Shown: positions 2,606-63,679 of the stretch, in pieces
How positions within the stretch are numbered: position 1 is the first letter of the stretch
Layout: the number at the start of each line of letters is the position of its first letter
DNA from: Candidatus Chisholmbacteria bacterium RIFCSPHIGHO2_01_FULL_52_32
Lineage (GTDB): Bacteria; Patescibacteriota; Microgenomatia; UBA1400; Chisholmbacteraceae
DNA length: 64,000 bases
NCBI GenBank assembly: GCA_001816585.1
Contig: MHCJ01000003.1
Coordinates: forward strand, 714,681-778,680
Direction of reading: 5' to 3'
Made by a program: the position numbers and the translations under genes
Notes under the pieces: model-generated
Told to the model about the DNA's origin: nothing
Seen by the model: the letters and a program-made list of their open reading frames with translations, nothing else
Databases searched by the model: none

Positions 2606-4318
2606 TTATTCTTCGCTCGGTTTGACGTCTTTCAGCTTTACCTGCAGAGTACTTTCTCCGTTCCACTCATTCGTCTCGATCGTAAAGGCAATGTCAATGG
2701 TCCTTTTGCCTTCGAGCGCCCGTATTTGCTCTCCCATGCCAAAACCGATTGCGGAAAGCCAGTGATCTGCCGAGGGCTGATTTCCGCGATCGGGCCCGAC
2801 CACCAATTTCAAGTGTTTTCCGTCGGCACCTACCTGACGCAGTGAGCGGGGGAAAACGCCTTTTGTTACAAACACCGGGACAGGATTGGCCATCCCGAAC
2901 GGTTCAAAGGCTTGGATTTTTTTGTACAATCCGTCTGTGATGTCGGAAAATGCGAGTTCACTGTCGACCTTCAGTGTTTTTTCCTGACGTTTCTTCCCTA
3001 AATGTTTACGGGCGGCCTGATGCATCCTCCGGGCAAAGACCTGGATGTGTTTTGTTTCAATGGTAAATCCCGCCGCCATCGGGTGGCCGCCAACATCAAC
3101 CAGGAGATCCTCGAACTGGCGGATCCTGTCGATGATATTAAATCCCGGAACGGAGCGGGCCGATGCCTTGGAAAGCTGTTGTCCGCGGGAAACGATAATC
3201 GTCGGCTTTGCGAATTCCTCTACCATTTTTCCGGCTATAAGCCCGATAATCCCTTCATGAAATTCCTCATGGTCAATGAAGATGAGTTGTTCTTCGCTTT
3301 TTCCGATGTTCGCGTACAGGGTTTTGGCTATCAATAGTGTTTCTTCCAAAAGCTTTCGGCGCTTCCTGTTCGTGTCTCCGATTCTTTCGGTCAGTTCTTT
3401 GGCACGCTGTTTGTTATGCGTGCATATAAGGCGTAATGCGTCCGTAGCTCTCTCGAGTCTTCCCATGGCGTTGAGGCGCGGGGCAATCATGAAGTTTATA
3501 TGGAAAGTGTTGATTTCTCCCGGGGAAATCTGCGCTTCCAAAAAAAGTTCCCGGAGGCCAATCCGTTTCGTTTCGCGTAATTCTTTTAGCCCCTCTTTGA
3601 CGATGGCGCGGTTTGCGCCAAGAAGCGGCACCATGTCTGCCACCGTGCCGATCGTTGCAAGGTCCAAGGAACTCCGGTGCGGCAATTTGGGAGTGAGCTC
3701 GGTTAAAAGCTCTCTAGCAAAAATCCAACTCACCCCTGAGCCTGCCAGCTTCGTGGTATGAATGATCGCTAAGGCTTTGGGAAGGTGTTTTGATTTCTCA
3801 TGGTGGTCACAAATCACCACATCAATGCCTTTTTTCTTGGCGTAGTCGACCCCGCTTTCGGCTACTATCCCGTTGTCAACGGTCATGATGAGAGTGGGCG
3901 TAGAGCGAAGGGCATAGAGCGAAGGGTTCTTGAGGATAGCATCGATACCTTTGATAGACAATCCGTAGCCGTGTGTTTCCCGATCGGGGATGAAGGGCAG
4001 TACGTTGGCGCCCGCTGAAAAGAGCGCTTCCCAGAGGATGGCTGCGGCACAGACGCCATCGGCGTCGTAGTCCCCATAAACTATGATCAGTTCTTTTGCT
4101 TTGATTGCCTTTCGTATTCGCGTAATTGCTTTTTTCAGTTCCCGTTTGTTTATGCCAACTTCCGTCAAGGTGATGGCTTGCGGATGCCGGGGTTTTAGAA
4201 ATTCCCGTACGTTTTTTGGGGACTTCAGCCCGCGGTTGCGAAGGAGGATTTTTATCACTTCCTCTTTTCGCTCACTTGGTGATTTTTTGGTAAGCTGTGA
4301 TTGGATTTGCCACTGCAT
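2606..4318 (-). CDS. recJ: single-stranded-DNA-specific exonuclease RecJ
   Basis: DHH motifs (VYGDYDADGV, VICDHH) and a DHHA1-like C-terminus, 570 aa. Confidence 0.9.
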   Translation of the reverse strand: MQWQIQSQLTKKSPSERKEEVIKILLRNRGLKSPKNVREFLKPRHPQAITLTEVGINKRELKKAITRIRKAIKAKELIIVYGDYDADGVCAAAILWEALFSAGANVLPFIPDRETHGYGLSIKGIDAILKNPSLYALRSTPTLIMTVDNGIVAESGVDYAKKKGIDVVICDHHEKSKHLPKALAIIHTTKLAGSGVSWIFARELLTELTPKLPHRSSLDLATIGTVADMVPLLGANRAIVKEGLKELRETKRIGLRELFLEAQISPGEINTFHINFMIAPRLNAMGRLERATDALRLICTHNKQRAKELTERIGDTNRKRRKLLEETLLIAKTLYANIGKSEEQLIFIDHEEFHEGIIGLIAGKMVEEFAKPTIIVSRGQQLSKASARSVPGFNIIDRIRQFEDLLVDVGGHPMAAGFTIETKHIQVFARRMHQAARKHLGKKRQEKTLKVDSELAFSDITDGLYKKIQAFEPFGMANPVPVFVTKGVFPRSLRQVGADGKHLKLVVGPDRGNQPSADHWLSAIGFGMGEQIRALEGKRTIDIAFTIETNEWNGESTLQVKLKDVKPSEE

Positions 4319-5810: not shown

Positions 5811-5830
5811 TTTTTTCCTCTGCAGTTGAC

Positions 5831-5965
5831 TTAAGGGCCAAGGGTTTAGGGCGCAGGGTATGGGGAGAGGAAGTTAGAGGAGGTTAGAGGGGATTAGGGC
5901 CCCAGTGAGATAGGGCGGAGCCCATCTCACGGGGTCAGGGAGAAGTAAAGGGTGGTTAAGGGGGG
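5831..5965 (+). repeat. intergenic G-rich octamer array (TTAGGGC, TTAGAGG units) plus conserved hairpin module, copy 1
   Basis: gggtttagggcgcagggtatgggg...gaagttagaggaggttagaggggattaggg is followed by the hairpin CCCCAGTGAGATAG-GGCGGAGCC-CATCTCACGGGGTCAGGGAGAAG at ~5901-5945. The region is the convergent junction of cca and secF. Confidence 0.8.
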
Positions 5966-10519: not shown

Positions 10520-10680
10520 AGTTAAAAAGTGAAAAGTCCCTCCTTCGCATTTACGGCTTCAAGCAGACTGCTTATTCAGCCGTTTCCTGAGCCGAATGCT
10601 TCGGCGGGCAAGTAAAAGTTAAAAGTCAAGAAATAGAATCTCAAAGTTAATAGTCAAAAGTTCAAGGATCTTTGTTGTTG
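10520..10680 (+). repeat. A-rich octamer repeat array (GTTAAAAGT, GTGAAAAGT, GTCAAAAGT units) with an embedded GCCGAA-TGC-TTCGGC hairpin
   Basis: gttaaaaagtgaaaagtcc ... gtaaaagttaaaagtcaagaaatagaatctcaaagttaatagtcaaaagttcaagg. This is the same unit family seen at 27062-27160 and 58412-58465. Confidence 0.7.
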
Positions 10681-16812: not shown

Positions 16813-17442
16813 ATGGAAATCTCCTTTGTCCTGACAACCCTTGACCGCATTTACCCCGAGCTTCCACTCCACAGGCTGGCAACAACCCCATTTCGTACGC
16901 TTATCGCAACCATGCTTTCTCAACGGGCACGGGATGAGCAGATTATTCCGGTGGCAAAGCGGCTGTTTACGGCGGCTGAGACTCCGAAAGCGTTCCTTTC
17001 CCTTTCCGACCGAAAGCTTCAGATAATCATCAGACCGGCGGGGAAATATCGGCAAAATGCCAAACGCATCAAGGAGATTTGCAGGATTCTTCTTGAGAAG
17101 TACGGGGGTGAGGTTCCTGACAGCGAAGAGGCATTGCTTTCACTACCCGGCGTTGGGCGGAAGACTGCGAATATTGTCCTTTCCCATTCGTTTGGGCGCG
17201 ATGCGATCGCGGTTGATATCCATGTCCACAGAATTACGAATCGTCTCGGGTGGGTGCGGACGAAGACTCCCGAAGAAACCGAGCGGGCCCTTCAGAAAAT
17301 TATCCCGAAGCGGTATTGGCGAATGGTCAACCGGGTGTTCGTCCGGCACGGACAAACCATTTGTACCCCCCAATCGCCCTTTTGTTTGCGATGTCCGGTT
17401 TTCCGATCCTGCCGACGGGTTGGGGTGAGGAAACAGCGGTAA
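16813..17442 (+). CDS. nth: endonuclease III (HhH-GPD, 4Fe-4S)
   Basis: LPGVGRKTANIVL helix-hairpin-helix and a C-x6-C-x2-C-x5-C cluster at the C-terminus. A TGATACAAT extended -10 lies 6 nt upstream of the ATG, so the mRNA is probably leaderless. Confidence 0.85.
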   Translation: MEISFVLTTLDRIYPELPLHRLATTPFRTLIATMLSQRARDEQIIPVAKRLFTAAETPKAFLSLSDRKLQIIIRPAGKYRQNAKRIKEICRILLEKYGGEVPDSEEALLSLPGVGRKTANIVLSHSFGRDAIAVDIHVHRITNRLGWVRTKTPEETERALQKIIPKRYWRMVNRVFVRHGQTICTPQSPFCLRCPVFRSCRRVGVRKQR

Positions 17443-21150: not shown

Positions 21151-21204
21151 GAAAACAGCATAGAAGGTTTATCTTTCCCAAGCAAGGCTGTGAAGATCAG
21201 GAAG

Positions 21205-21270
21205 AGAATGTTAGAGGATTATAGAGGAGATTAGAGGACAGTAGAGGAAATTACCGGAAGGGATGTTAAG
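21205..21270 (+). repeat. octamer array (GTTAGAGG, TTATAGAGG, GATTAGAGG, CAGTAGAGG), copy 2
   Basis: gaatgttagaggattatagaggagattagaggacagtagaggaaattaccggaagggatgttaag, immediately upstream of the comM start. Confidence 0.75.
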
Positions 21271-21286
21271 TGTGATTGGGGGTACA

Positions 21287-25728: not shown

Positions 25729-25782
25729 TAATTATAGCGTCTTGGGACCGCGTGTATACCCCATTGCGGGAAGCGAGATTTA

Positions 25783-25812
25783 TGAATTATGAATCATGAA
25801 TTATGAATCACG
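25783..25812 (+). repeat. tandem 14-mer (ATGAATTATGAATC, two copies plus a partial) in the pilC-pilM intergenic region
   Basis: tgaattatgaatcatgaattatgaatcacg, read directly from the sequence. Confidence 0.7.
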
Positions 25813-27061: not shown

Positions 27062-27160
27062 GAATAAAAAGTTAAAAGTTAAGAGTTAAAAGTCTAAAGT
27101 TATTAAATACGAATCAAATAGTTAAAAGTGAAAAGTGAAAAGTAAGATATCAACGTCTCC
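27062..27160 (+). repeat. A-rich octamer array (GTTAAAAGT, TAAGAGT, GTGAAAAGT units), pilB-pilC intergenic
   Basis: aaaaagttaaaagttaagagttaaaagtctaaagttattaaatacgaatcaaatagttaaaagtgaaaagtgaaaagtaag. Confidence 0.75.
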
Positions 27161-40815: not shown

Positions 40816-41622
40816 TCATCTTCCATACGCGCCGTACACCTTCAAACCCTTCCGCCAGACAAACTGAGAAAGTTCAGCAAGAATGAGTACCCATACCACC
40901 ATGATTGCCAATGTGCCTGCCGTCTGTTGAGCATTCAAACGGCCCAGATAGATTTGCATCGGGTAAAAGAGGAAGTACGCCGGAGGCAGCAGGCGAACTA
41001 CGTTGTAGGCAGCGGGAGGAAGGATGTCAAGCGGGAACAAACCGCCCGAGAAGAATTCTATTATTACCATGGAGAGAAATCTCAAGGGCCAGCCGGAATA
41101 CTCCACATACCAGAACGTGACTGAACTTACCAGAAAGCTCAGGAAAAAATAGATCAGCATTGCCAGAATGCCGGCAATAGTAAACGCCAATACCTGCATC
41201 GGTTGATTTTGTATGAATACTGTCGGTTTGAGCAGATAAAAAAGCACGATCAGCTCCCCTATCACGAAGATGAGATTCAATGCCTTATCAGCCAGATCAC
41301 GAGATAACCAGTTGGCAAAATAGTTCACCGGTTTCACCAGGTAGTTATTGAGATCTCCCTTGGCGATTTCGGAAGCAGCATCCACGCTTCGTGATCCAAG
41401 AACAAAGGATCGCAGGATTGACGTCCCTAAAATATAGGTTAAGATCATCGGCTGGTCATAGCCAAACGCCGTTCCCCCTCTTTTGAAGATTGCCACCCAG
41501 AGAAAGTAGACGGCCAAAAGCTGCAGCACCGAGCGCACGCGCCACATGATGAAGTTTAAGCGGTAGACGAAGCTGTCCATCCAGCTTATTTTGGCAATGG
41601 CTATGTACTTCTTCAGCCTCAT
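40816..41622 (-). CDS. ABC-2 family transporter permease
   Basis: 268 aa polytopic. It overlaps the ATPase stop. Confidence 0.6.
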   Translation of the reverse strand: MRLKKYIAIAKISWMDSFVYRLNFIMWRVRSVLQLLAVYFLWVAIFKRGGTAFGYDQPMILTYILGTSILRSFVLGSRSVDAASEIAKGDLNNYLVKPVNYFANWLSRDLADKALNLIFVIGELIVLFYLLKPTVFIQNQPMQVLAFTIAGILAMLIYFFLSFLVSSVTFWYVEYSGWPLRFLSMVIIEFFSGGLFPLDILPPAAYNVVRLLPPAYFLFYPMQIYLGRLNAQQTAGTLAIMVVWVLILAELSQFVWRKGLKVYGAYGR

Positions 41623-42623
41623 TTCGGTTTTTGGAAAGGTTTCATCCTACCGGTGAAGACCTCGCGGATGATCGCTTCAATCGGTGGCTCTTCGATCACT
41701 ACGTCTGCAACAGGGAATTCTTCGAGAAGTTTCGCAGCCTTTTTGGCGGCCTCCGTTCTCGGAACTGTCAACTGTGCTTTCGGAAACTCGTACTCGCGAA
41801 TGTTTCCGAATTCCGCCAATTTCCTCTGATCGATGCTGCTTGAAAATACCACGGTGATGATTTTCTCGCGCGCAAATCGGTTGACAACTTCCTGCAGCTT
41901 CCCGTCATAGAGGATGGTCCCTTCATTGATGATAATGACCCGCTCACACAGCTCCCGTACATCATCCATGTAGTGGCTTGTCAAGATGATGGTCGCCTTG
42001 AATTCCCGATTGTATTCCTTAATGAAATCGCGCATCACCTTTTGCATGACGACATCGAGTCCGATAGTTGGCTCATCCAGGAAGAGGACTTTGGGACTAT
42101 GGAGGAGGGCTGCGATAAGTTCGCATTTCATCCGTTGTCCCAACGATAGTTTTCTTACTTGCGTTTTTAAAATGCCGCCCACATCGAGAAGTCTGACCAA
42201 ACGCTTGAGCGTCTGTTGAAATTGTCCATCGGGGACCTCATAGATTTCCTTATTCAAGGTGAATGTTTCCATCGGCGGCAAGTCCCACCACAGCTGATTC
42301 TTCTGGCCCATGACCAGTCCGAATTGTTTTTGAAATTCCGGCCGCCTCTCCCATGGAATGAACCCGAGCACCCTGGCTTCACCGGAAGTCGGATAGAGAA
42401 GTCCTGACAGGCATTTCAGCGTCGTTGTCTTTCCGGCCCCGTTCGGGCCGATAAAACCCACGAGTTCCCCTTCTCTAATCGTGAAGTCAATATTATTTAT
42501 TGCCTGTACCTCTTCGTATTTCCGTGCGATGAGGGATTTGAAAGACCCGACGAGGCCCGTTTCCTTCTGCAAAACTTTGAAGTACTTTTTCAAATGGCGC
42601 ACTTCAATCGCGTTTTTCCCCAT
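41619..42623 (-). CDS. ABC transporter ATP-binding protein
   Basis: Walker A GPNGAGKTTT, signature LSLGQRMKC and Walker B LFLDEPT, 334 aa. Confidence 0.85.
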   Translation of the reverse strand: MGKNAIEVRHLKKYFKVLQKETGLVGSFKSLIARKYEEVQAINNIDFTIREGELVGFIGPNGAGKTTTLKCLSGLLYPTSGEARVLGFIPWERRPEFQKQFGLVMGQKNQLWWDLPPMETFTLNKEIYEVPDGQFQQTLKRLVRLLDVGGILKTQVRKLSLGQRMKCELIAALLHSPKVLFLDEPTIGLDVVMQKVMRDFIKEYNREFKATIILTSHYMDDVRELCERVIIINEGTILYDGKLQEVVNRFAREKIITVVFSSSIDQRKLAEFGNIREYEFPKAQLTVPRTEAAKKAAKLLEEFPVADVVIEEPPIEAIIREVFTGRMKPFQKPK

Positions 42624-42671
42624 GAAGTTTATTCTACCATGAAGCTTGACGGACTTTGGGGATGCAGGGAG

Positions 42672-42830
42672 AGACAGAAAGGAGGGTTAGAGGAGCTTTG
42701 AAGGTTTGGGGGGGTTCCCCAGTGAGATAGGCAAGCCATCTCACGGGGTCAGAGAGAAGTTAAGGGTGATTAAGGGTAGTTAAGGGTCAATAAGGGTGAC
42801 TAAGGGTGTGGAGGAAGGATTCCACAAAGG
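42672..42830 (+). repeat. repeat element copy 3: partial octamer units, conserved hairpin (42717-42751), then five phased TAAGGGT units
   Basis: ccccagtgagatag-gcaagc-catctcacggggtcagagagaag, then ttaagggtgattaagggtagttaagggtcaataagggtgactaagggtgtggaggaagg. The unit spacing is ~10-11 bp. Confidence 0.85.
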
Positions 42831-42836
42831 GGGGGC

Positions 42837-43112
42837 TCACCACACGGCTTTTCTGAGTGGTTTTCCCGGACGGAAGTTGACGACGCGGTGGGATTTAATG
42901 GTTGTCCGGCGCTCCTCTTGGCCGAAGGGAACAATTGTTTTGTCCGCAACTTTTGAGAGGTAAAACGTGCCGAATCCCGAAAGCACCACTCGTTCCCCTT
43001 TCTTGATCGCTTTGGACATTTCCTCAAGCAATACATCAATTGACTCAGCCGCAGCTTTCTTTGTCAAATGGCCTTTCTTGGAAACGATGTCGACGAACTC
43101 TTTTTTCGTCAT
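42837..43112 (-). CDS. hup: DNA-binding protein HU
   Basis: 91 aa with the HU fold signature (GFGTF...R..R.GRNP-like arm region). Confidence 0.85.
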   Translation of the reverse strand: MTKKEFVDIVSKKGHLTKKAAAESIDVLLEEMSKAIKKGERVVLSGFGTFYLSKVADKTIVPFGQEERRTTIKSHRVVNFRPGKPLRKAVW

Positions 43113-43261
43113 GGCGCTCCTGACAGATTAGTAATAAAAAACTAAAAGAATACGGAGAACAGTAATAATTTTCTCAAACAGAAATCATGAGTATAGTATT
43201 CACTTTTAACCTATACATCAAGCTAAACTGCAAGTCAATGGGGGAATGGGAAGAGCATTAG

Positions 43262-43400
43262 CGTTTAGCGTCTAGGGTTTAGGGTATAGGGTATAGAGAG
43301 AGGAGGAGAGAGGGGGAGGTTAGAGGATATTAGAGGAGGGAGGTTAAGGGTCGATAAGGGTGACTAAGGGTGTGGAGAGAAGGGTTCCGCAAAACGGGGT
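43262..43400 (+). repeat. repeat element copy 4: GGGTTTAGGGTATAGGGTATAG, then TTAGAGG units, then a ~75-nt block homologous to 42760-42836
   Basis: ...ttaagggtcgataagggtgactaagggtgtggagagaagggttccgcaaaacgggg closely matches ttaagggtcaataagggtgactaagggtgtggaggaaggattccacaaaggggggg in copy 3. Confidence 0.85.
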
Positions 43401-43406
43401 CGCGGC

Positions 43407-44939
43407 TCACTTTGCAACGTCGGTGGCTCTGATTTCGCGGATCACCGTGACTTTTACTGTTCCCGGATATGTCATCTCTTTTTCAATTTTCTCCCGCAGG
43501 TCATGGGCAAGTTTTTCGACTGCTGCGTCTGATATTTGCTCCGGATTGACGATAACCCGCACTTCGCGACCCGCTTGAATGGCGTAGGCTTCCGTGACCC
43601 CCGGGAAAGAGGTCGCAAATTCTTCAAGCTTCTTTAAGCGTTTTACGTATTCTTCGTAGTCCTCGTAGCGTGCGCCCGGTCGACTTCCTGAGATGGCATC
43701 TGCAATATAGACGAGGGCGGCCTCTTTCGTTGAAATTGGCTGATCTTCGTGGTGTTGGGCGACACAATCCAACACACCTTGGGGGATTTGAAATCGAGTA
43801 AGGAATTTGACCCCGAGTTCAACATGGCTGCCTTCTTCGTCCGTGATCACCTTTCCAATATCGTGGAGGAGGCAACCCAAGCGAACCGTATCAACGTTTG
43901 CTCCTACTTCATGGGCAAGGGCTATGCCCAGTTTCGTCTCTTCTAATGTATGAACAATCATGTTTTGTCCATATGAGAAGCGGTACTTGAAACGGCCTAA
44001 CATCTGCATGATTTCCCTGGGAAGATTGAAGACGCTGACGGCATGGCAAAGTTGTTTTCCTGCCTCAAATGTTTCGCGTTCGATCTCGCTCTTGGCTTTG
44101 GCAACGAACTCTTCAATTCTTGATGGCTGAATTCGGCCGTCGACAATGAGATGCCTCAAGGAAACTTTTGCGACTTCTCTTCTTATGGGGTCAAAACTCG
44201 AAAGTCGAACTTCTCCCGGAGTTTCATCAAGATCAACATCAACTCCGGTTGCATGTTCAAAGGCTCGGATGTTGCGCCCCTCTTTCCCGATGATTCTGCC
44301 TTTCATCTCTTCATCGGGCAGTTTGACTGTCGAAACGGTATACTCTGCAACATAGTCTGTTGCGGCATGCCGCATGGCATCTACCAGAATCTCCCGTGCT
44401 TTTTCTACCGCTTCTTCTTTCGCTTTCTCTTCGGATTCTCTGATGAGTTTGGCTGATTCTTCCGCGAGCTCTTTCTGAAGTTCGTCAAGTAATTCCTGCC
44501 TGGCTTTGTCCTTTGGTAACCTTGCGATTTCTTCAAGTTTAATAAGCTTCTGTTCTTTTATGCGTTCAAGTTCCTGCAACCGGTCTTGGATCTTTGTTTT
44601 TGCCAGTTCGGCTTCCGCTTGTTGTTTTTGGATTACCGCCTGTCTTTCTTCGAGGGACGCTTCTGTTCGTGTCAGATGTTCTTGGAGCTTTGCCAATTCT
44701 TCCCGAAGAACCCTGGCTTTCTCTTCCGCTTCGTGGCGGATCCGCAATGCCTCATCTTTCGCGTCAATGATAATCTCTCTGGCCCTTGCCTCTGCCAACG
44801 AAAGTTCCCGTCTATCTTCCCGTTTCTCTCTTGGAAGCTCCGGTTTTACCTCCGGCTTTACTCTTTGCGCTTGTGGCACTTTGGGACTGAAGACCTTACT
44901 AAATGTCGTAAAAAGATCCATAGATTCCTCCACATTCAA
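43407..44939 (-). CDS. rny: ribonuclease Y
   Basis: N-terminal TM, coiled coil, KH domain and HD domain (LLHDIGK), 510 aa. Confidence 0.9.
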   Translation of the reverse strand: MNVEESMDLFTTFSKVFSPKVPQAQRVKPEVKPELPREKREDRRELSLAEARAREIIIDAKDEALRIRHEAEEKARVLREELAKLQEHLTRTEASLEERQAVIQKQQAEAELAKTKIQDRLQELERIKEQKLIKLEEIARLPKDKARQELLDELQKELAEESAKLIRESEEKAKEEAVEKAREILVDAMRHAATDYVAEYTVSTVKLPDEEMKGRIIGKEGRNIRAFEHATGVDVDLDETPGEVRLSSFDPIRREVAKVSLRHLIVDGRIQPSRIEEFVAKAKSEIERETFEAGKQLCHAVSVFNLPREIMQMLGRFKYRFSYGQNMIVHTLEETKLGIALAHEVGANVDTVRLGCLLHDIGKVITDEEGSHVELGVKFLTRFQIPQGVLDCVAQHHEDQPISTKEAALVYIADAISGSRPGARYEDYEEYVKRLKKLEEFATSFPGVTEAYAIQAGREVRVIVNPEQISDAAVEKLAHDLREKIEKEMTYPGTVKVTVIREIRATDVAK

Positions 44940-45109: not shown

Positions 45110-45742
45110 CTACGGGAGAAGTTCGTCAACGACGGCGCGGATTGTTTCCCAGTTAAATCCCCGCCTGCCTAAGAAATTTCCCAGTTTTAGCCTGGCCTTG
45201 GTGCGATTTTCCTGTCTTAAACTTTTTACCTTTTTCTCTGCGATGAGACGGACGTTCTCCACATCGCTTGTTTCGGAGAGTACTTCCTGGATTATCTCTT
45301 CCTCAATTCCTTTTCGCCTTAGTTCTGAGGCGATTGCCCGTTTGCTTTTCTGACGAAATTCACGTCTTTGATCCACCCACCAGACTGCGAAGTCGTGGTC
45401 ATTAAGTAGGTTTTTTTCTTTGAGCTTGGTTATCAGTTCGTTTATTATCTTTGTTCGCTCCGGGGTCTCGGACACCCTTTTCCAAAACCTCTGGAAATGG
45501 TCCCGTACTTCTTTTGCCGATCGTGGTCTAAAGGAGAGAAAATGGAGCGCCCGATTAAAGAGCTTGGCTGATTCACTTTCCTTCTTTAATTTTGTAAGCA
45601 AAGGTCCGGAAACGTCGGTTCCCACTTTGAGTCCAAGCTTCGTCACTACCACAAGATCCAGACTCGTTTCGAAGTGTCCGTCAACAAAGATATTTACATA
45701 GTTTGGATTTCTTTGGGCCTTTAGCTTCGTGATCCGCGGCAT
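45110..45742 (-). CDS. recX: recombination regulator RecX
   Basis: Three-helix repeats of the RecX family, located directly after recA. I prefer the internal start MPRITKL because it avoids overlap with recA. Confidence 0.8.
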   Translation of the reverse strand: MPRITKLKAQRNPNYVNIFVDGHFETSLDLVVVTKLGLKVGTDVSGPLLTKLKKESESAKLFNRALHFLSFRPRSAKEVRDHFQRFWKRVSETPERTKIINELITKLKEKNLLNDHDFAVWWVDQRREFRQKSKRAIASELRRKGIEEEIIQEVLSETSDVENVRLIAEKKVKSLRQENRTKARLKLGNFLGRRGFNWETIRAVVDELLP

Positions 45743-45749
45743 GCTCGAG

Positions 45750-46811
45750 TTAGGAGGGGAGTTCTTCTTTTGGCGGGCGGCCACGCTTGGGGGTTTCCGT
45801 TCGTTTTCGCTCTACAGCTTTGAAGATTTCCGCTTCTATTTCTTTGGCAAGTTTGTGATTTTCTTCAAGCATTTGTTTAGCCGCTTCACGGCCTTGCGCG
45901 AGCACCTCTCCTTTAAAGCGCAGGAAACTCCCTGATTTTTCGATCACCCCAAGCTCGAGGCCTACGTCGATCAGGCTCCCCGAATAAGAGATTCCCGCGT
46001 CATTCATGATGTCAAACTCCGAGAAGCGGAAGGGAGGCGCTACCTTGTTCTTCACCACTTTCACCCGATGTCGCGATCCAACCACCTGTTCGCCCTCCGT
46101 GATATTCCCGATCTTTCGCATGTCAATCCGTATGGAGGAGTAAAACTTCAGTGCCTGTCCTCCGGTGGTTGTCTCGGGATTTCCGAACATGATTCCGATC
46201 TTCATGCGGAGTTGATTGGTAAAAATCATCACGGTCTTTGAACGGGCGATCGCCCCGGCAAGTTTTCGCATCGCCTGACTCATGAGTCGCGCCTGGAGTC
46301 CCATCATGGCATCCCCCATTTCCCCTTCAATCTCGGCTTTTGGGACAAGGGCGGCAACGGAATCCACACAGATCACATCTACTCCGCCGGAACGGATGAG
46401 GGTTTCCGCAATTTCCAAGGCTTGTTCACCGGTATCGGGTTGTGAAACTAGAAGCTCATCGAGGTTTACCCCGATTGCTTGAGCGCGTTGCGGGTCAAGG
46501 GCGTGTTCAGCATCGATGAAGGCCGCGGTGCCGCCCATCCTTTGCGCTTGGGCAATGACATGAAGACAGAGGGTCGTCTTTCCGCTTGCCTCGGGACCAA
46601 AGATTTCAACAATTCTTCCGCGGGGCAACCCTCCAACCCCAAGGGCAAGATCCAAACCAATTGCTCCTGTCGGAATCGTTGAAAGATGGGTATCACGGGT
46701 TGGGGCAGAACCAAGTTTCATAATCGAACCTTTCCCGTATTGCTTTTCTATCTGCTCCATCGCGATTCTGACTGCTTGGAGTCTTTGTGACTGCTCGCCG
46801 TTCTTTGACAT
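45750..46811 (-). CDS. recA: recombinase RecA
   Basis: GPEASGKTT Walker A and canonical RecA L1/L2 regions, 353 aa. Confidence 0.95.
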
Positions 46812-49183: not shown

Positions 49184-49370
49184 TTTTTCCTCCTTTCTTC
49201 ATTAAATCACAGAAGGAAGTCATGGTACAATTGCAAGACGACGGGGAGTAGTATACCGGCAGTACACGCGCATGGGGTGCGCGTAGAGGGAGTTCAATTC
49301 TCCCCTCCCCGACATAGGTAGACATACGCCCGAAAAGACTGCGTGCTTAAGAAGTATAGAAGGTGTTTTT

Positions 49371-50114
49371 ATGAGCGTCAGACGATCCCGATACCTGTAC
49401 TCTCCCTCTTCAGCCTCTCCCTTTAAGATCAGCCGATCGAAGATTGATTTATACCTTACATGTCCCAAATGCTTCTATCTTGACCGGAGACTTGGGATTT
49501 CACGCCCCTCATTTCCAACGTTCAGCCTCAACTTGGCGGTGGATGTGCTGCTCAAAAAAGAGTTTGACCTGCTTCGGCAGACGAGACAGCCGCATACGCT
49601 CATGAAACAATACCGGATTAACGCCATACCTTTTGCGCATCCGGAGCTTGAGGTTTGGCGCAACAATTTTCGGGGAAAACAATACCATCATCGGGGTACG
49701 AATCTCGTTATCACCGGCTCGGTTGATGATATTTGGGTCAACCCGGAAGGTGAGCTTCTGATTGTTGATTACAAATCGACAAGCACGGAGAAGGAAATTT
49801 CTTTAGACGATGAATACAAACAGGGGTACAAAAGGCAGCTTGAGGTTTACCAATGGATTTTTCGGCAAAGCGGATTTCCGGTTTCCGATACCGGGTACTT
49901 CGTGTTTGCCAATGCCGGGAAAAACCGGCCGTCGTTTGACGGGAGATTGGAATTTGAACTTTCGATTGTTTCTCACCGCGGCAATGATACCTGGGTTGAG
50001 CCGACTGTTGAAGCCATCAAAAAGTGTTTGGATTCAGATGAGTTGCCCGCCTCGGGAAAAGAGTGCGAGTATTGCCAATACCGGGAAGCTGTGGGTGGAG
50101 AGTTGAGGGAGTAG
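49371..50114 (+). CDS. PD-(D/E)XK nuclease, Cas4/RecB-nuclease-domain-like, standalone
   Basis: D...ELLIVDYKS is the PD-(D/E)XK motif II/III. An N-terminal Cys (CPKC) plus C-terminal CEYCQY give a Cas4-like Fe-S cysteine arrangement. 247 aa. Confidence 0.55.
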   Translation: MSVRRSRYLYSPSSASPFKISRSKIDLYLTCPKCFYLDRRLGISRPSFPTFSLNLAVDVLLKKEFDLLRQTRQPHTLMKQYRINAIPFAHPELEVWRNNFRGKQYHHRGTNLVITGSVDDIWVNPEGELLIVDYKSTSTEKEISLDDEYKQGYKRQLEVYQWIFRQSGFPVSDTGYFVFANAGKNRPSFDGRLEFELSIVSHRGNDTWVEPTVEAIKKCLDSDELPASGKECEYCQYREAVGGELRE

Positions 50115-50220
50115 AGGGAAGAAAATTAGAGGATATTAAAGGATATTAGAGGAACTTGGAGGAAGTTAGAGCCCCAGTGAGATAGTACTTCGTACATCTC
50201 ACGGGGTCAGAGAGAAGATA
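50115..50220 (+). repeat. repeat element copy 5: TTAGAGG-type units plus conserved hairpin (50171-50207)
   Basis: agggaagaaaattagaggatattaaaggatattagaggaacttggaggaagttagag, then ccccagtgagatag-tacttcgta-catctcacggggtcagagagaag. The region is a convergent junction. Confidence 0.85.
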
Positions 50221-51942
50221 TCAGAACGGCGAGAGGAGTCTTAAGCTTTGTTGCGGATAGCGGAAGAAGGAAACGATATCTCTTAAGGTGAGCGTCCCGT
50301 CACTGTTGAAATCCAAGGGGAGCAGACGCTTGAACTCAACCGTTGTCGTTTCTTGGGAAAGATACGCGTACATTTGGCGAGGAAGATAGTACGGTTTCGT
50401 AAGGACGAAGCGATAGACTTTTTCCGGGATGACATCGTGGAGCTCCGAAACCGTGCCGACTCCGTTTTTTATTGAAAATGGTTCAATCTTTTTAACAAGT
50501 TTTCCCTCGTCGTAGATCAAAAGCGTGAAATCGCCGGCGCTGGTTTTGGGCTTTATCCAGAGATCGGCTTTGAGGATTATGCTGGGGGGCGGGAGAATAG
50601 TGATCTTATGCTCCCGGGTCTCTCCGAACGGTTTTCCTTTATGGAGAAGTTCGATTGTCAGAGTCAAATTGCCAGTTTCCTTGGGCGTTCTTATCCTCAC
50701 CTCTACTTCTCCTATGCGGAAGGGGTCGGTTTCCGGAATGTGCCCGACGAATATGTTTGCGGTCTTTTGGGAATTTTCTACCTTGAGTGAAAAATCATCC
50801 CTGTTCCAGATCGATTGGCCGATGTTTTTCAGCCTGATGGTAAATGTGTAATCTGAATCGACGACCAACTCTTCCGGAAGCGATGGCGGGAGAAAGATCC
50901 CCGAATGAACTTGCGGAGGTTCACCGTTCGTTTTGGGAATCGCTTTTACTTCGTCGTATTGTTGGTATTTCTCACTATCTTCCTTCATCCAGGAAAAATG
51001 ATCAAAGGGTTCCTCCGGGTATCGGAGAACAAAGGGGGTAACGGCGATAATTTGGGAGTCCAACCAGATTGATTGATAAGCCTGTTTGAACAAGGCTGCC
51101 ACGGTGTCTGCGGAATGGGCGGAGGGGTCTTTAACCTTTCCTTCCCGGTGGATCCAGCCTGTTTCCGTGATAATAACCGGTATATCGCTCTTTAGTCCGT
51201 ATCTTTTCAGCCATCCGATTTCCCATCTATACCCTTGGAGGCTGGTTTTTCCCTTCTGATTGAGCGAGCCTGAAAAGTTCGGATTGGGATAGGCATGGGA
51301 AGTCCATCCGTCAAACAAGGAAAAGACTGTTGGATCTTCCTGCCGCATCTTCAGCCAATATGCCTCCGGTGTCATGGTTTCCGGTCCGTTTGTGGCGGCG
51401 GCATCAAAGCCAGCCGGAAGAACGAAGAAATCTTCCGAGCGTTTTTTCAGAGCATCGTGAAAGAAGCGAGTGAAGCGGGCGTATTCTTCCGGATCAAGAC
51501 TTCCGCCCCACTCTTTTGCATGGTTCGGTTCATTGAACAGGATCACATAACGGTTTTTTACGACCCAATTGAGGGAGGAAAGAAAACTTACCCAACTGTC
51601 AATATCTTCTTCCCTTGGTTTTGCCCAGCCGCCGTCTTGAGCCTTGGTTGCAAGCCTCAGAAGCGGGATAAGTTTTAATTCCCGCATCCGATCGAAAATC
51701 CTCTGCCATTTTTCAACATTCCTGTCGTCTTCACGAATAACAATGGTCACATAGCCCCAGCCTCCGCCCGCACTGTTGACAAGGGCGGCGGCATCTTCCA
51801 GATCCTCCTCACTGATGATGTGAATGCCGAAGCGGTTGTTCGGAGTTGACCTTGGGTCAACGATGCCTAACACAGGCCTGACCGTCGCAGCGAAGCAGGC
51901 CGCGGTGAAGAGGGCACAGAGCAGAGATTTCATCGGACTCAT
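50221..51942 (-). CDS. secreted glycoside hydrolase, clan GH-A TIM-barrel type, with C-terminal beta-rich domains
   Basis: Signal peptide, FNEPNH (acid/base) and IITETGW (nucleophile) motifs, 573 aa. Confidence 0.5.
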   Translation of the reverse strand: MSPMKSLLCALFTAACFAATVRPVLGIVDPRSTPNNRFGIHIISEEDLEDAAALVNSAGGGWGYVTIVIREDDRNVEKWQRIFDRMRELKLIPLLRLATKAQDGGWAKPREEDIDSWVSFLSSLNWVVKNRYVILFNEPNHAKEWGGSLDPEEYARFTRFFHDALKKRSEDFFVLPAGFDAAATNGPETMTPEAYWLKMRQEDPTVFSLFDGWTSHAYPNPNFSGSLNQKGKTSLQGYRWEIGWLKRYGLKSDIPVIITETGWIHREGKVKDPSAHSADTVAALFKQAYQSIWLDSQIIAVTPFVLRYPEEPFDHFSWMKEDSEKYQQYDEVKAIPKTNGEPPQVHSGIFLPPSLPEELVVDSDYTFTIRLKNIGQSIWNRDDFSLKVENSQKTANIFVGHIPETDPFRIGEVEVRIRTPKETGNLTLTIELLHKGKPFGETREHKITILPPPSIILKADLWIKPKTSAGDFTLLIYDEGKLVKKIEPFSIKNGVGTVSELHDVIPEKVYRFVLTKPYYLPRQMYAYLSQETTTVEFKRLLPLDFNSDGTLTLRDIVSFFRYPQQSLRLLSPF

Positions 51943-51959
51943 CCGATCATTGTAACACT

Positions 51960-52070
51960 AGAAGAGAAAGGGTTGTGGGTAGAGGGTAGAGAGGGGAGGT
52001 TAGAGGATATTAGAGGAAGCTAAGGGTAAATTAAGGGTGAGTAAAGGGAGGAGAAATAGGGTAGAGGCGG
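51960..52070 (+). repeat. repeat element copy 6 (GGTAGAGG, GTTAGAGG, TAAGGGT units)
   Basis: gggtagagggtagagaggggaggttagaggatattagaggaagctaagggtaaattaagggtgagtaaagggaggagaaatagggtagagg. Confidence 0.8.
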
Positions 52071-52075
52071 TTTAT

Positions 52076-55370: not shown

Positions 55371-55883
55371 TTAAATCTTTCTTTCCTCTTTTATCACCGG
55401 TGGATTGGGTGCAGGGTTCTTTAGGTTTTCTTTCTTTCCCTTGTCCTGTTTCGCCGGAGCTTCGGAGGATAAATCTTTTTTCGAGTCCGGCTTTGATTCT
55501 TTGTCTTTCCTGGCTTGTTCTTGTCTTTTCTTCTCGATCAGCTCTATTCGTACCAGCATGGCATTGTCTCCCCGCCGTTCTCCAACACGGATGATTCTTG
55601 TAAAGCCGCTCACCCTGTCCCTGAACCTTGGCCCAAGTTCATCGACGATTTTATTCACTGCCTTTTTATTCTGTAGAAATGCGGCAATGGTGCGGCGGAC
55701 ATGGAGTGTCCCTTTCTTTCCGCTGGCAATGAGACTATCGGCCAAGCCTTTGATTGCCTTGGCTTTGCTTTCCGTTGTTTGAATTTCCTCCTTCATCACT
55801 AAGCTTGTGATGAGGTTTTTAAACAACGATTTTCTCTGTTTTATATCGCGGCTGAATTTCTTTCCGAATACTCTATGGCGCAT
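55371..55883 (-). CDS. rplQ: 50S ribosomal protein L17 with ~55-aa K/E-rich C-terminal extension
   Basis: The true start is MRHRVFGKKFSRD. The track start at 55916 reads through the upstream octamer repeat (MPKPYTLNPIP is encoded by ggaatagggtttagggtatagggtttaggcat). Confidence 0.85.
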   Translation of the reverse strand: MRHRVFGKKFSRDIKQRKSLFKNLITSLVMKEEIQTTESKAKAIKGLADSLIASGKKGTLHVRRTIAAFLQNKKAVNKIVDELGPRFRDRVSGFTRIIRVGERRGDNAMLVRIELIEKKRQEQARKDKESKPDSKKDLSSEAPAKQDKGKKENLKNPAPNPPVIKEERKI

Positions 55884-55925
55884 AGGAATAGGGTTTAGGG
55901 TATAGGGTTTAGGCATTAGGGGGGA
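55884..55925 (+). repeat. repeat element copy 7 (GGGTTTAGGGTATAGGGTTTAGG) directly abutting the rplQ start codon
   Basis: ggaatagggtttagggtatagggtttaggcattagggggg. No Shine-Dalgarno lies between the repeat and the ATG. Confidence 0.8.
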
Positions 55926-55953
55926 GAGGTTTTCCCTCGAATCCTGTCTTCCC

Positions 55954-57992: not shown

Positions 57993-58409
57993 TTATTCCT
58001 TGGTCGGTGTCTCATGTTTCGTCAGTTCTTCTTTCTTCATTGCGCCGATGGTTTTCCTCTTCCCCCGTTTGGTTCTTGCATTGGTACGGGTTCGCTGGCC
58101 ATGGACAGGCAGACCCATGGCATGACGCAATCCGCGGTACGTCCCGATTCTCTTTAATCGTTCAATATTCTCTCGAATTTGTTTGCGTAGGTTTCCTTCC
58201 GTGTTTATCTTGTCTATCGCCCGTTGCAACCGAGCCACTTCTTCCGTAGCCAGATCTTTCGCCCGTTTATCCGCATTGACGTTGGCTTCCGCAAGAATTT
58301 GCTTCACATTCCGCCGTCCCACTCCGAAAATGTACGTAAGTGCGACTTCGGTTCGCTTCTGTTCCGGTATATCGATTCCTGCAATGCGTGGCATATTCCC
58401 TTCGGTCAA
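57993..58409 (-). CDS. rpsM: 30S ribosomal protein S13
   Basis: [25 protein letters not shown]. Confidence 0.9.
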
Positions 58410-58411
58410 GT

Positions 58412-58465
58412 TACAAATTTAAAGTTTAAAGTTAAAAGTTTTGAATTTTGTATTTTAAACTTTGA
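58412..58465 (+). repeat. A-rich octamer array (TTTAAAGTTTAAAGTTAAAAGT) between rpmJ and rpsM
   Basis: gttacaaatttaaagtttaaagttaaaagttttgaattttgtattttaaac. Confidence 0.7.
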
Positions 58466-58579
58466 TTATCCCTGGCGCTGTTTATGGCGCGGGTTTTCAC
58501 AAACCACATACACTTTTCCGTGACGGCGAATGATCTTACATTTATTACATCTGATTTTCACGCTTGACTTTACTTTCAT
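58466..58579 (-). CDS. rpmJ: 50S ribosomal protein L36 (below ORF-track length cutoff)
   Basis: Hand translation gives [37 protein letters not shown], the canonical Zn-ribbon L36, in the expected infA-rpmJ-rpsM order. Confidence 0.85.
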
Positions 58580-63648: not shown

Positions 63649-63679
63649 AGAGAGATAGGGTATAGGGTATAGGAAATAG
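63649..63679 (+). repeat. repeat element copy 8 (AGAGAGATAGGGTATAGGGTATAGG) filling the whole rpsH-rplF spacer
   Basis: It lies between the rpsH stop (63680) and the rplF ATG (63648), and no Shine-Dalgarno is present. Confidence 0.8.

Follow-up and report, generated by a model that had tools for sequence, protein, structure and literature searches.

How the spacers on either side of hup came to be filled with short, regularly spaced, G-rich units, and whether these units serve the genes that they separate, are the questions raised by positions 42672-43400 of a 64,000-nucleotide (nt) stretch from Candidatus Chisholmbacteria bacterium RIFCSPHIGHO2_01_FULL_52_32, a member of the candidate phyla radiation (CPR). 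The whole stretch (contig MHCJ01000003.1, positions 714,681 to 778,680) is called the window here. From its letters alone, the original prediction had reported degenerate octamer arrays at eight intergenic sites, and had considered Rho utilisation sites, G-quadruplexes (G4) and iteron-like protein-binding arrays as their possible nature. We found that six array sites are copies of one composite element of about 90-180 bp, and that three of these copies carry a bulged hairpin which recurs in other phyla. The explanation that we favour, with moderate confidence, is that the arrays are modules of a selfish, oriented, dispersed and fast-evolving mosaic intergenic repeat, partnered with a mobile hairpin that resembles repetitive extragenic palindromic (REP) elements. 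The repeats are not an assembly artefact, since two independent assemblies carry identical arrays: L075 (retrieved contigs and loci are denoted by L numbers) is identical to the window over the spacer between hup and the ABC ATPase gene (hup-ABC), arrays included, and L199 is 99.89% identical to it over 12.5 kb, with all 14 differences located outside the arrays.

Tandem Repeats Finder, in agreement with a direct reading of the sequence, detected degenerate arrays at all eight sites. The period of the units, which had been put at about 8-11 bp (and about 10.5 bp), proved to be exactly 10 (TTAGAGGNNN, TTAAGGGTNN) or exactly 7 (TAGGGTW). The array downstream of hup was resolved by the program as 4.9 copies of TTAAGGGTGA (42760-42808); read as five units (42760-42809), it shows no change in the 35 cells of its 7-nt core and seven changes in the 15 cells of its 3-nt spacer. 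All eight sites are intergenic, G-rich on the plus strand and 3' of the stop codon of a minus-strand gene. Counted over the window, where intergenic DNA has a share of 10.6%, the motif T[TA]A[AG][AG]GG occurs 27 times in intergenic and 23 times in coding DNA on the plus strand, versus once and 18 times, respectively, on the minus strand. Pairs of this motif phased at 10 bp number eight on the plus strand and none on the minus strand (0.04 expected from shuffles), and the same polarity is displayed by TAGGGT pairs phased at 7 bp and by phased AAAAGTN pairs, each with five on the plus strand and none on the minus strand. The heptamer units of the window are TAGGGTW, AAAAGTN and TTATGAA, next to two decamer families; short tandem intergenic repeats show an approximately tenfold intergenic enrichment, and all arrays are purine-rich on the plus strand, with 11 of 11 co-oriented. 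The claim of non-random, intergenic and strand-polar arrays beside stop codons is therefore upheld by Tandem Repeats Finder and by the counts against shuffles.

Six sites (composites A to F in Table 1) are collinear and share one module order: G-rich heptamer-like units come first, then a GAGAGGRG run and two to four TTAGAGGNNN units; these are followed by an insert that some copies lack, by TTAAGGGTNN units (two to five) and by a small terminal hairpin (GTGGAG..TTCCRC) with AAAGGGG behind it. These sites are copies of one element, which always has the same orientation and lies in spacers that run from a stop codon to the promoter or start codon that follows. Composites C and E have a near-identical middle in common, and composites B and C a near-identical right end. 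The block duplicated after hup and rny, as noticed by the original prediction, was confirmed with 80% identity over 96 columns (score 88, best shuffle 29) and about 90% identity in its core, the copies ending 1 nt (hup) and about 6 nt (rny) from the stop codons. The bulged hairpin is present in three of the six composites (A, B and D), each time at the same junction, and the related contig L088/L102 displays the same composite layout with a compensatory variant as its insert. This hairpin, the collinear order of the modules and the AAAAGTN and TTATGAA arrays had all been overlooked.

Table 1. Repeat modules, genes and other features of the window (positions counted from its first nucleotide).
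Feature	Positions	Strand	Description
Composite A	5826-5965	+	between convergent genes for a CCA-adding enzyme and SecF; G-rich heptamer-like units, TTAGAGGNNN x2, hairpin, TCAGGGAGAAG, TAAAGGG/TTAAGGG units
Composite B	42655-42836	+	fills the spacer from the hup stop codon to the ABC ATPase gene promoter
Composite C	43255-43400	+	in the spacer from the rny stop codon to the hup promoter, the latter TTGACT..TATAGG near 43215-43250; TAGGGTW heptamers, GAGAGG run, TTAGAGGNNN x2, TAAGGGTNNN x3, terminal module; no hairpin
Composite D	50092-50220	+	between convergent PD-(D/E)XK nuclease gene and 573-aa open reading frame (ORF); TTAGAGGNNN x4.7, hairpin, TCAGAGAGAAG
Composite E	51958-52075	+	from the flavodoxin gene stop codon to the 573-aa ORF start; module order as C; no hairpin
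Composite F	21196-21286	+	between the stop codon of a YkuD-domain gene and the start of a Mg-chelatase-like gene; TTAGAGGNNN-type decamers x4.3; no hairpin
Hairpin copy 1	5900-5934	+	CCCC-A-GTGAGAT-A-GGGC GGA GCCC-ATCTCAC-GGGG; 52.7 bits, E = 6.5e-11
Hairpin copy 2	42717-42748	+	apical GGC AA GCC; tail TCAGAGAGAAG at 42749-42759; 52.2 bits
Hairpin copy 3	50172-50206	+	apical GTAC TTC GTAC; 53.3 bits
Terminal module	42807-42835	+	small hairpin GTGGAGGAAGGATTCCAC, then AAAGGGGGGG; 1 nt before the hup stop codon
Terminal module, second copy	43371-43400		
Duplicated block	42756-42841, 43316-43411		core at 42779-42829 and 43343-43394
Period-10 arrays	5866-5897, 21211-21253, 42760-42808, 43299-43372, 50125-50171	+	Tandem Repeats Finder
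Period-7 arrays	43258-43296, 51969-52006, 55889-55921, 63655-63673	+	Tandem Repeats Finder
TTAAGGGTNN decamer array	42760-42809	+	5 units; 7-nt core TAAGGGT invariant, 3-nt spacer varies
TAGGGTT heptamer array (G)	55883-55930	+	rpoA-rplQ spacer; adjoins the L17 start codon (55881-55883)
ATAGGGT x2.7 array (H)	63649-63679	+	occupies the whole 31-nt spacer upstream of rplF (L6)
AAAAGTN A-rich heptamer array	27067-27153	+	about 11 units, between the type II secretion system (T2SS) genes T2SS-E and T2SS-F; in a spacer after a minus-strand gene
Further AAAAGTN arrays	10613-10662, 58418-58465	+	Tandem Repeats Finder; the first in a spacer after a minus-strand gene, the second inside a long plus-strand ORF (58224-58523), forming an imperfect palindrome
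TTATGAA heptamer array	25780-25810		in a spacer after a minus-strand gene
ABC ATPase gene	41619-42623	-	Pfam
hup	42837-43112	-	HU-type DNA-binding protein (Pfam)
rny	43407-44939	-	RNase Y (Pfam)
RecX gene	45110-45784	-	Pfam
573-aa ORF	50221-51942	-	no Pfam match
tRNA-Pro	49242-49313		
-10-like box before ATG (examples)	42624-42645, 51943-51957, 17430-17442		

The hairpin, 31-45 nt in length, has the form CCCC-A-GTGAGAT-A-[3-4-bp stem + loop]-ATCTCAC-GGGG, followed by TCAGRGAGAAG. It is a real structure. The apical stems of the three copies in the window differ in sequence yet pair (GGGC/GCCC, GGC/GCC and GTAC/GTAC), and the upper stem, examined over three pairs in 60 aligned copies, covaries: 50 cells are doubly changed versus 27.3 in shuffles, a number reached by none of 500 shuffles, and 90.9% of the upper-stem cells are paired versus 26-54% in slid controls. 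Diverged hairpins found with a covariance model keep the lower stem by compensatory changes (GTGGGAT/ATCCCAC, ATGAGAT/ATCTCAT). Conservation extends to the unpaired flanks, where a purine precedes the stem and Y-A-R-R-C follows it (read on the opposite strand, G-Y-Y-T-R). G-U pairs are more numerous on the complement strand (27 versus 9), and among 62 distinct sequences this strand folds better in 31, the other strand in 21.

A scan for the exact arms in one genome per species, a search whose exact matching biases it toward arm identity, located the hairpin in 73 loci. About 36 of these belong to Planctomycetota (Sedimentisphaerales, Phycisphaerae and Pirellulales) and about 27 to CPR lineages, the remainder being two Verrucomicrobiota, two metagenome-assembled genomes (MAGs) labelled Gammaproteobacteria, Aegiribacteria and others. 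Single Planctomycetota MAGs hold up to 8 exact-arm copies in the retrieved loci, the 64-kb window holds three, and approximately 80% of all copies are intergenic. No match to Rfam 15 was obtained in the window at the gathering threshold, only chance-level matches (E > 1) were found by E-value in 42620-43410, and among 18 hairpin loci Rfam returned nothing over the hairpin. The exact pattern has no match in viral contigs, BLAST of the hairpin against plasmids gave one chance-level match only, and a full-text literature search for the arm sequence returned only unrelated primers. An integron attC site was rejected, as the flanks and arms are without RYYYAAC ... GTTRRRY motifs; k-turn, MS2/PP7-type operator, dif site, NrdR box, hammerhead or twister ribozyme and CRISPR repeat were rejected for misfits of sequence or architecture and on the Rfam results.

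By its positions in the retrieved loci the hairpin behaves as mobile DNA, inserting into coding regions and into its own copies. The ATP synthase beta subunit of L066 has a 14-residue in-frame insertion, relative to solved structures, exactly at the hairpin; copies are also found in frame within linkers or loops of UvrC (two genomes), a GT4 glycosyltransferase, an Elp3-like enzyme, a winged helix-turn-helix protein and a propeller protein, and each coding copy is read in the sole frame without stop codons. In L061 and L035 a hairpin copy plus CAGGC is nested after GAGAT-RAC (GAGAT-AAC in L061) in the loop of another copy, and deleting the inner 38 nt of L061 gives back the canonical sequence of the outer hairpin. 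Of the outer copy only the 5' half remains in L063 and L069, the hairpin of L018 lies inside the loop of a related hairpin, and inverted doublets were found in L007 and L065. Several CPR copies sit within longer stems, which is what one would expect if they had inserted into the loops of hairpins already present. Neighbouring hairpins in one locus are co-oriented in 13 pairs and opposite in 2; between co-directional genes the CCCAG orientation is antisense in 23 cases and sense in 9. Many copies lie within about 40 nt of a stop codon, and their contexts comprise a 16S leader, 5' and 3' untranslated regions (UTRs), convergent and divergent spacers, and coding regions.

Several observations were made beside these hairpins. 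In a Paceibacterota MAG (L015:88-155, minus strand) the hairpin lies 32 nt upstream of the 16S rRNA 5' end, on the same strand. In L003:7550-7680 it is located between two diverged copies of approximately the first 30 nt of a coding sequence that visual inspection of its N-terminal residues (YTLT[VI]GLEIH) tentatively assigns to gatB. The reading frame of the upstream copy continues through the hairpin as far as a stop codon, and the flanking copies may have been left by a long duplication when the hairpin inserted. Eight Planctomycetota loci (L005, L011, L029, L035, L046, L049, L060 and L063) contain an apparent ORF, characterised by FMQNKANF..VNKVLTKDY..KPIQSQ, that looks like a translated dispersed DNA repeat rather than a gene (e.g. 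L029:3044-3577). GAATTAGWG octamers recur beside the hairpin in two Phycisphaerae MAGs (among L026, L054 and L069). A metagenome scan for three TAAGGGT units returned mostly unrelated simple decamer satellites such as TTGATAAGGG, arrays of which recur in many contigs (L074-L193), and only L075, L088 and L102 came from the lineage of the window; inverted pairs of arrays round a short centre were seen in the metagenome contigs L105, L110, L156, L174 and L188.

The fate of the spacers was followed in related genomes. The synteny recA-recX-rny-hup-ABC is kept in relatives, as is the hup promoter, and the stretch from the rny stop codon to this promoter differs in every lineage compared. L195 and L196 have 4.4 copies of TACTCCA after rny and 3.6 copies of TCTTAAA after hup; L198 has four copies of GCAACAAT in the rny-hup spacer, and its hup-ABC spacer measures 54 nt versus 213 nt in the window. 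L194, the RNase Y of which is 71% identical to that of the window, has textbook terminators composed of a hairpin and a T-run after both genes (L194:11516-11674 and L194:11951-12028). L031 comes from the same assembly as L196, is placed in the candidate genus of the window (75% identity between the RNase Y of L196 and that of the window), and contains six co-oriented arrays that put the G-rich strand in the sense of Pfam-confirmed genes; the unit families of this genome are TACTCCA, TCTTAAA, TTTCGAA and TTAAGGG. The RNase Y of the window is likewise 75% identical to that of Candidatus Chisholmbacteria RIFCSPHIGHO2_01_FULL_49_18. Judged from these sequences, the arrays turn over fast between relatives.

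Canonical intrinsic terminators are missing from the window itself. A stable hairpin with a T-run at most 110 nt downstream was found for only 1 of the 71 window genes, a consensus scan of the window for terminator-like sites gave 27 versus 29.1 expected, no excess over shuffles, and none of the array sites has a G+C-rich hairpin directly followed by a U-tract. Because relatives have terminators at these positions and the window has essentially none, the composites occupy terminator positions in a genome stretch without canonical terminators.

According to the explanation favoured here, copies of the composite would have entered, in a single constant orientation, the spacers that separate a stop codon from the promoter or start codon that follows. 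The mosaic repeat would colonise the only tolerated places of a compact genome. The hairpin would be a REP-like miniature mobile palindrome of about 40-45 nt, with two single-base bulges, a free apical stem and a conserved single-stranded tail, which would insert precisely without evident target duplication and would prefer the loops of existing hairpins, its own copies included. It may move as a folded single strand, the better-folding strand being the complement (CCCCGTGAGAT...), and may be mobilised in trans by an HUH/Y1 enzyme of the kind encoded by IS200-like elements or by REP-associated tyrosine transposase (RAYT) genes. The arrays presumably grow by local tandem duplication and spread within the composite. 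Since the composites sit at the terminator positions of relatives in a window with essentially no terminators, they were probably co-opted as transcription-unit boundaries, secondarily to their selfish spread; a boundary or termination role is accordingly possible.

The statement of the original prediction that no described repeat family fits is too strong, as mosaics of REPs and bacterial interspersed mosaic elements (BIMEs), REPs tagged with GTAG or CGTC, and intergenic heptamer arrays all come close. Elhai and co-workers reportedly found in 2008 that the heptamer arrays of cyanobacteria, the short tandemly repeated repetitive (STRR) sequences, carry embedded small dispersed repeats (SDRs), which are said to be hairpins of 21-27 nt with compensatory changes, nested into their own copies. 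The hairpin described here is likewise tiny, changes in a compensatory way, often lies in heptamer arrays and nests in itself; the differences are the phyla (CPR, Planctomycetota and others), a length of about 31-45 nt versus 21-27 nt, and the decamer arrays that the window holds next to heptamers. As in STRRs, tandem units of about 7 nt come in several families per genome with an approximately tenfold intergenic enrichment, and relatives carry other heptamers. The existence of STRRs and SDRs and their restriction to Nostocaceae are on record (PMC5861425, PMC3116915).

REP families are found downstream of genes, use G-T pairing, form dimers, have in-frame copies in uvr genes, occur in the phyla of the Planctomycetes-Verrucomicrobia-Chlamydiae (PVC) group and build mosaic clusters (PMC3733652), and REP doublets forming hairpins (REPINs) have been studied together with their RAYTs (PMC3116915). 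The hairpin resembles them in being an imperfect palindrome of 30-45 nt with an unpaired conserved flank and a variable loop, found chiefly between genes and at their 3' side, with G-T pairing that favours one strand, inverted doublets, in-frame insertions in linkers of conserved proteins including a Uvr protein, and a presence in PVC phyla; it is also joined with other short motifs into mosaic intergenic blocks, in six collinear copies. The comparison included the Rickettsia palindromic elements (PMC3733652). Unlike REPs, the hairpin has two single-base bulges and carries the same arms in different phyla, whereas REP families are usually lineage-restricted; unlike in BIMEs, the partner modules are degenerate 7- and 10-bp arrays instead of fixed motifs, and most composites carry one hairpin or none instead of alternating REP pairs.

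Intergenic heptamers have been described as TAACTGA in Beggiatoaceae, Cyanobacteria and Bacteroidetes (PMC4679880) and as GGGNATC in Xanthomonas and Nostoc (PMC4692102). Like these, the arrays consist of 2 to tens of short tandem units, are strongly intergenic, strand-polar and scattered across phyla, and some abut start codons without a Shine-Dalgarno (SD) motif, including in ribosomal-protein operons, the G-rich ones having G4 potential; they differ in the unit sequences, in the additional period of 10, and in the fixed order in which several unit types form one composite with a hairpin. IS200/IS605 Y1 HUH transposases mobilise single strands (superfamily: PMC6006769), and the ends of these elements and of palindrome-associated transposable elements (PATEs) share with the hairpin the imperfect, bulged and subterminal form with conserved single-stranded flanks, the absence of a target duplication, and the co-orientation expected for targeting of the lagging-strand template. 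The hairpin differs in being single, without distinct left and right ends, and in having no transposase gene nearby.

Several results weigh against the selfish mosaic. Its main weaknesses are that no enzyme is linked to the hairpin, that the cross-phylum identity of the arms resembles constraint, and that the array cores are invariant. By tblastn, no Y1/RAYT or IS200 homologue was found in the window, and 72 of the 73 hairpin loci likewise had none; the queries for these searches were approximate sequences of E. coli Rho, IS200 TnpA and E. coli RAYT. The sole match to any of them in the window and loci is a Y1_Tnp (IS200/RAYT-like) gene of a Pirellulales contig (L055:3148-3699, E = 2.3e-8), located 1.7 kb from a hairpin. 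This gene is flanked (3060-3110 and 3695-3790) by several other G+C-rich hairpins, each preceded by GTTTAG, and it has no homologue in the other hairpin loci; all-against-all clustering of ORFs from the 73 loci gave no hairpin-linked protein, the sole recurrent 'protein' being the translation of another repeat. Nor does the hairpin have the GTAG/CTAC or CGTC/GACG tag of REPs, its tail being Y-A-R-R-C. All 22 arm bases are identical across phyla among the exact-arm loci, which resembles a sequence-specific function. At one orthologous site in three genomes (L039:3900-4030, L050:1330-1440 and L053:1470-1590), in the 5' UTR just upstream of the SD motif and start codon of a glutaredoxin-like gene, the arms are identical while the flanking proteins are 40-73% identical and an adjacent second hairpin varies by compensatory substitutions (CCACATTAGAT, CCACGTTAGAT and TCACGTTTGAT); this identity, too, looks more like function than like decaying selfish DNA. 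Invariance of the 7-nt array core, with a variable spacer, suggests selection on a motif, and no array slippage is visible between the window and L199 over the 12.5 kb compared. Finally, the link between hairpin and arrays is loose outside the lineage of the window: an array lies within 100 nt of 15 of 75 hairpins, versus 7.6% of random positions.

With respect to L055, its locus looks like a REP/RAYT unit with an unusual tag, and GTTTA precedes the stem on the complementary strand in many Planctomycetota hairpin copies.

A wider version of the same idea, to which we give rather low credence, makes the hairpin (about 40-45 nt with its tail) an active miniature mobile element that would move between CPR/Patescibacteria, Planctomycetota, Verrucomicrobiota and others, inserting precisely into hairpin loops, tandem arrays and essential genes. 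A trans-acting enzyme would then recognise the 22 invariant arm bases sequence-specifically, and the 7- and 10-bp arrays would not be passive products of slippage but would be made or maintained by the same machinery, serving as transcription-unit boundaries in genomes without intrinsic terminators.

Among the explanations that take function as primary, the one that best survives, though still unlikely, regards the arrays as periodic Rho-loading (rut) pads and the hairpins as pausing or anchoring structures; the composite as a whole would then end transcription in a factor-dependent way. Rut sites are C-rich, G-poor and unstructured stretches of about 60-80 nt that precede the release sites in the terminated RNA. 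Transcripts of the upstream gene would carry (ACCCUUANNN)n and (NNNCCUCUAA)n, with one YC-rich unit per Rho subunit. In mRNA sense the array spacers have 30-46% C and 0-16% G (3-12% G at the six composites) versus 22% C and 26% G in the coding part of rny, folding predictions leave the array RNA unpaired between two hairpins, all eight sites are 3' of a minus-strand stop codon, intrinsic terminators are absent where L194 has them, and in L195 the heptamers that follow rny and hup are likewise G-poor in the sense strand. The Rho-site-like composition that the original prediction had proposed thus stands in the window, as does a predicted lack of structure, but the six L031 arrays, in the same candidate genus, have the G-rich strand in mRNA sense. 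Arrays G and H lie within ribosomal-protein operons against the L17 and L6 start codons, H spanning no more than 31 nt; at sites A and D, where the genes converge, it is the G-rich strand that the plus-strand gene receives; the A-rich AAAAGTN arrays would yield U-rich instead of C-rich RNA; and no rho match was obtained in the window and retrieved loci.

That the arrays are head-to-tail double-stranded sites for an oligomerising protein (nucleoid-associated or winged-helix/OmpR-like), acting as an orientation-independent roadblock or insulator, we regard as improbable. In its favour, direct-repeat operator arrays have just this pattern, a period of exactly 10 bp in which 7 nt form an invariant core and 3 nt a variable spacer. 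Moreover, heptamers regain the helical register every 21 bp, the arrays lie directly upstream of promoters, and independence of orientation would accommodate L031. However, helical phasing of the iteron type, as considered at the outset, fits the period-10 arrays and not those of period 7. A single binding protein is made unlikely by the period-7 arrays and by the multiple unit families per genome and per orthologous spacer: the window alone has TAGGGTW, AAAAGTN, TTAGAGG and TAAGGGT, and close relatives have different units at the same spacer. No candidate protein was identified, and the strict co-orientation of 11 of 11 arrays would be needless for a protein that binds double-stranded DNA.

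Quite unlikely, too, is that the hairpin is a conserved structured RNA or operator for a widely conserved host protein (in processing, stability or termination) and the arrays unrelated filler. Arm identity across phyla and at the orthologous 5'-UTR site, next to a hairpin that changes in a compensatory way, would fit such a role, as would the bias to the 3' side of genes in one orientation (23 versus 9) and the U-rich tract that 10 of 78 copies have behind them on the complement strand (at least six T within 10 nt). It is opposed by the in-frame insertions in essential genes, the nested self-insertions, the many near-identical copies per genome in some Planctomycetota MAGs, the absence of a consistent gene association and the lack of a matching Rfam family.

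A G4 formed by the G-rich strand in template DNA or RNA, which would stall polymerases and regulate flanking genes, is very improbable as the basis of the arrays. Four canonical G3+N1-7 motifs lie on the plus strand, all within arrays, against one on the minus strand; site A (5835-5858) would have loops of 3-4 nt, and GGGNATC heptamer arrays of Xanthomonas and Nostoc form G4 in vitro (PMC4692102). The motifs noticed earlier are hence present, but their G4Hunter peaks of 1.3-1.7 are matched by many coding stretches and TAAGGGT arrays would have 7-nt loops. G4 potential is not the common denominator, because most unit families, namely TTAGAGG and AAAAGTN and the TACTCCA, TCTTAAA and GCAACAAT units of relatives, are without G-tracts.

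Scarcely credible, finally, is a role of the pyrimidine-rich arrays as unstructured translation leaders, bound for example by S1, for genes without an SD motif, as proposed for the TAACTGA heptamers of Beggiatoaceae (PMC4679880): arrays G and H directly adjoin start codons without SD motif, and an SD-like motif (GGAG, GAGG or AGGA) precedes only 15 of the 71 predicted window genes, but a promoter lies between most composites and the downstream start and many genes look leaderless, so that the downstream gene's mRNA would not include the array, the strand is the opposite one in L031, and no gene lies downstream of the arrays at the convergent sites A and D.

With regard to the gene content of the window, SD motifs are concentrated in the ribosomal-protein operon at 58.9-63 kb. 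Many genes have a -10-like box (TAGAAT, TACAAT or TATAAT) 6-12 nt before the ATG, and this proximity suggests that leaderless mRNAs may be widespread in the window. GC skew proved too weak a proxy of replication direction (-0.024 on coding DNA, equal for both gene orientations). The 573-aa ORF is bracketed by composites, D at its 3' end and E at its 5' end, and adjoins the PD-(D/E)XK nuclease gene and tRNA-Pro. Of the 14 differences that separate L199 from the window, 13, including a 3-nt indel, fall in a 96-nt patch (44784-44879) in the N-terminal part of rny, a localised divergent tract that is possibly due to recombination.

Intergenic heptamer arrays (PMC4679880, PMC4692102) and REP/BIME mosaics with in-frame palindromic insertions (PMC3733652) were already known. 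What appears to be new is the combination of arrays and hairpin in CPR bacteria, the fixed composite of decamer and heptamer arrays and, most of all, the recurrence of a single hairpin, its arms identical, in CPR, Planctomycetota and other phyla. CPR genomes, at about 1 Mb, are thought to be streamlined; yet about 40% of the longer spacers in this 64-kb stretch hold the repeated mosaic. Together with the missing canonical terminators, such spacers raise the question of how transcription ends and how selfish DNA is tolerated in these genomes. The hairpin offers a concrete bait for the enzyme that moves REP-like elements without a RAYT nearby, and it could serve as a marker for the exchange of DNA between CPR episymbionts and other members of their communities. 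With it, the pairing of heptamer arrays and tiny hairpins known from Nostoc reaches unrelated phyla, a spread that points to a general mechanism and not to a peculiarity of cyanobacteria.

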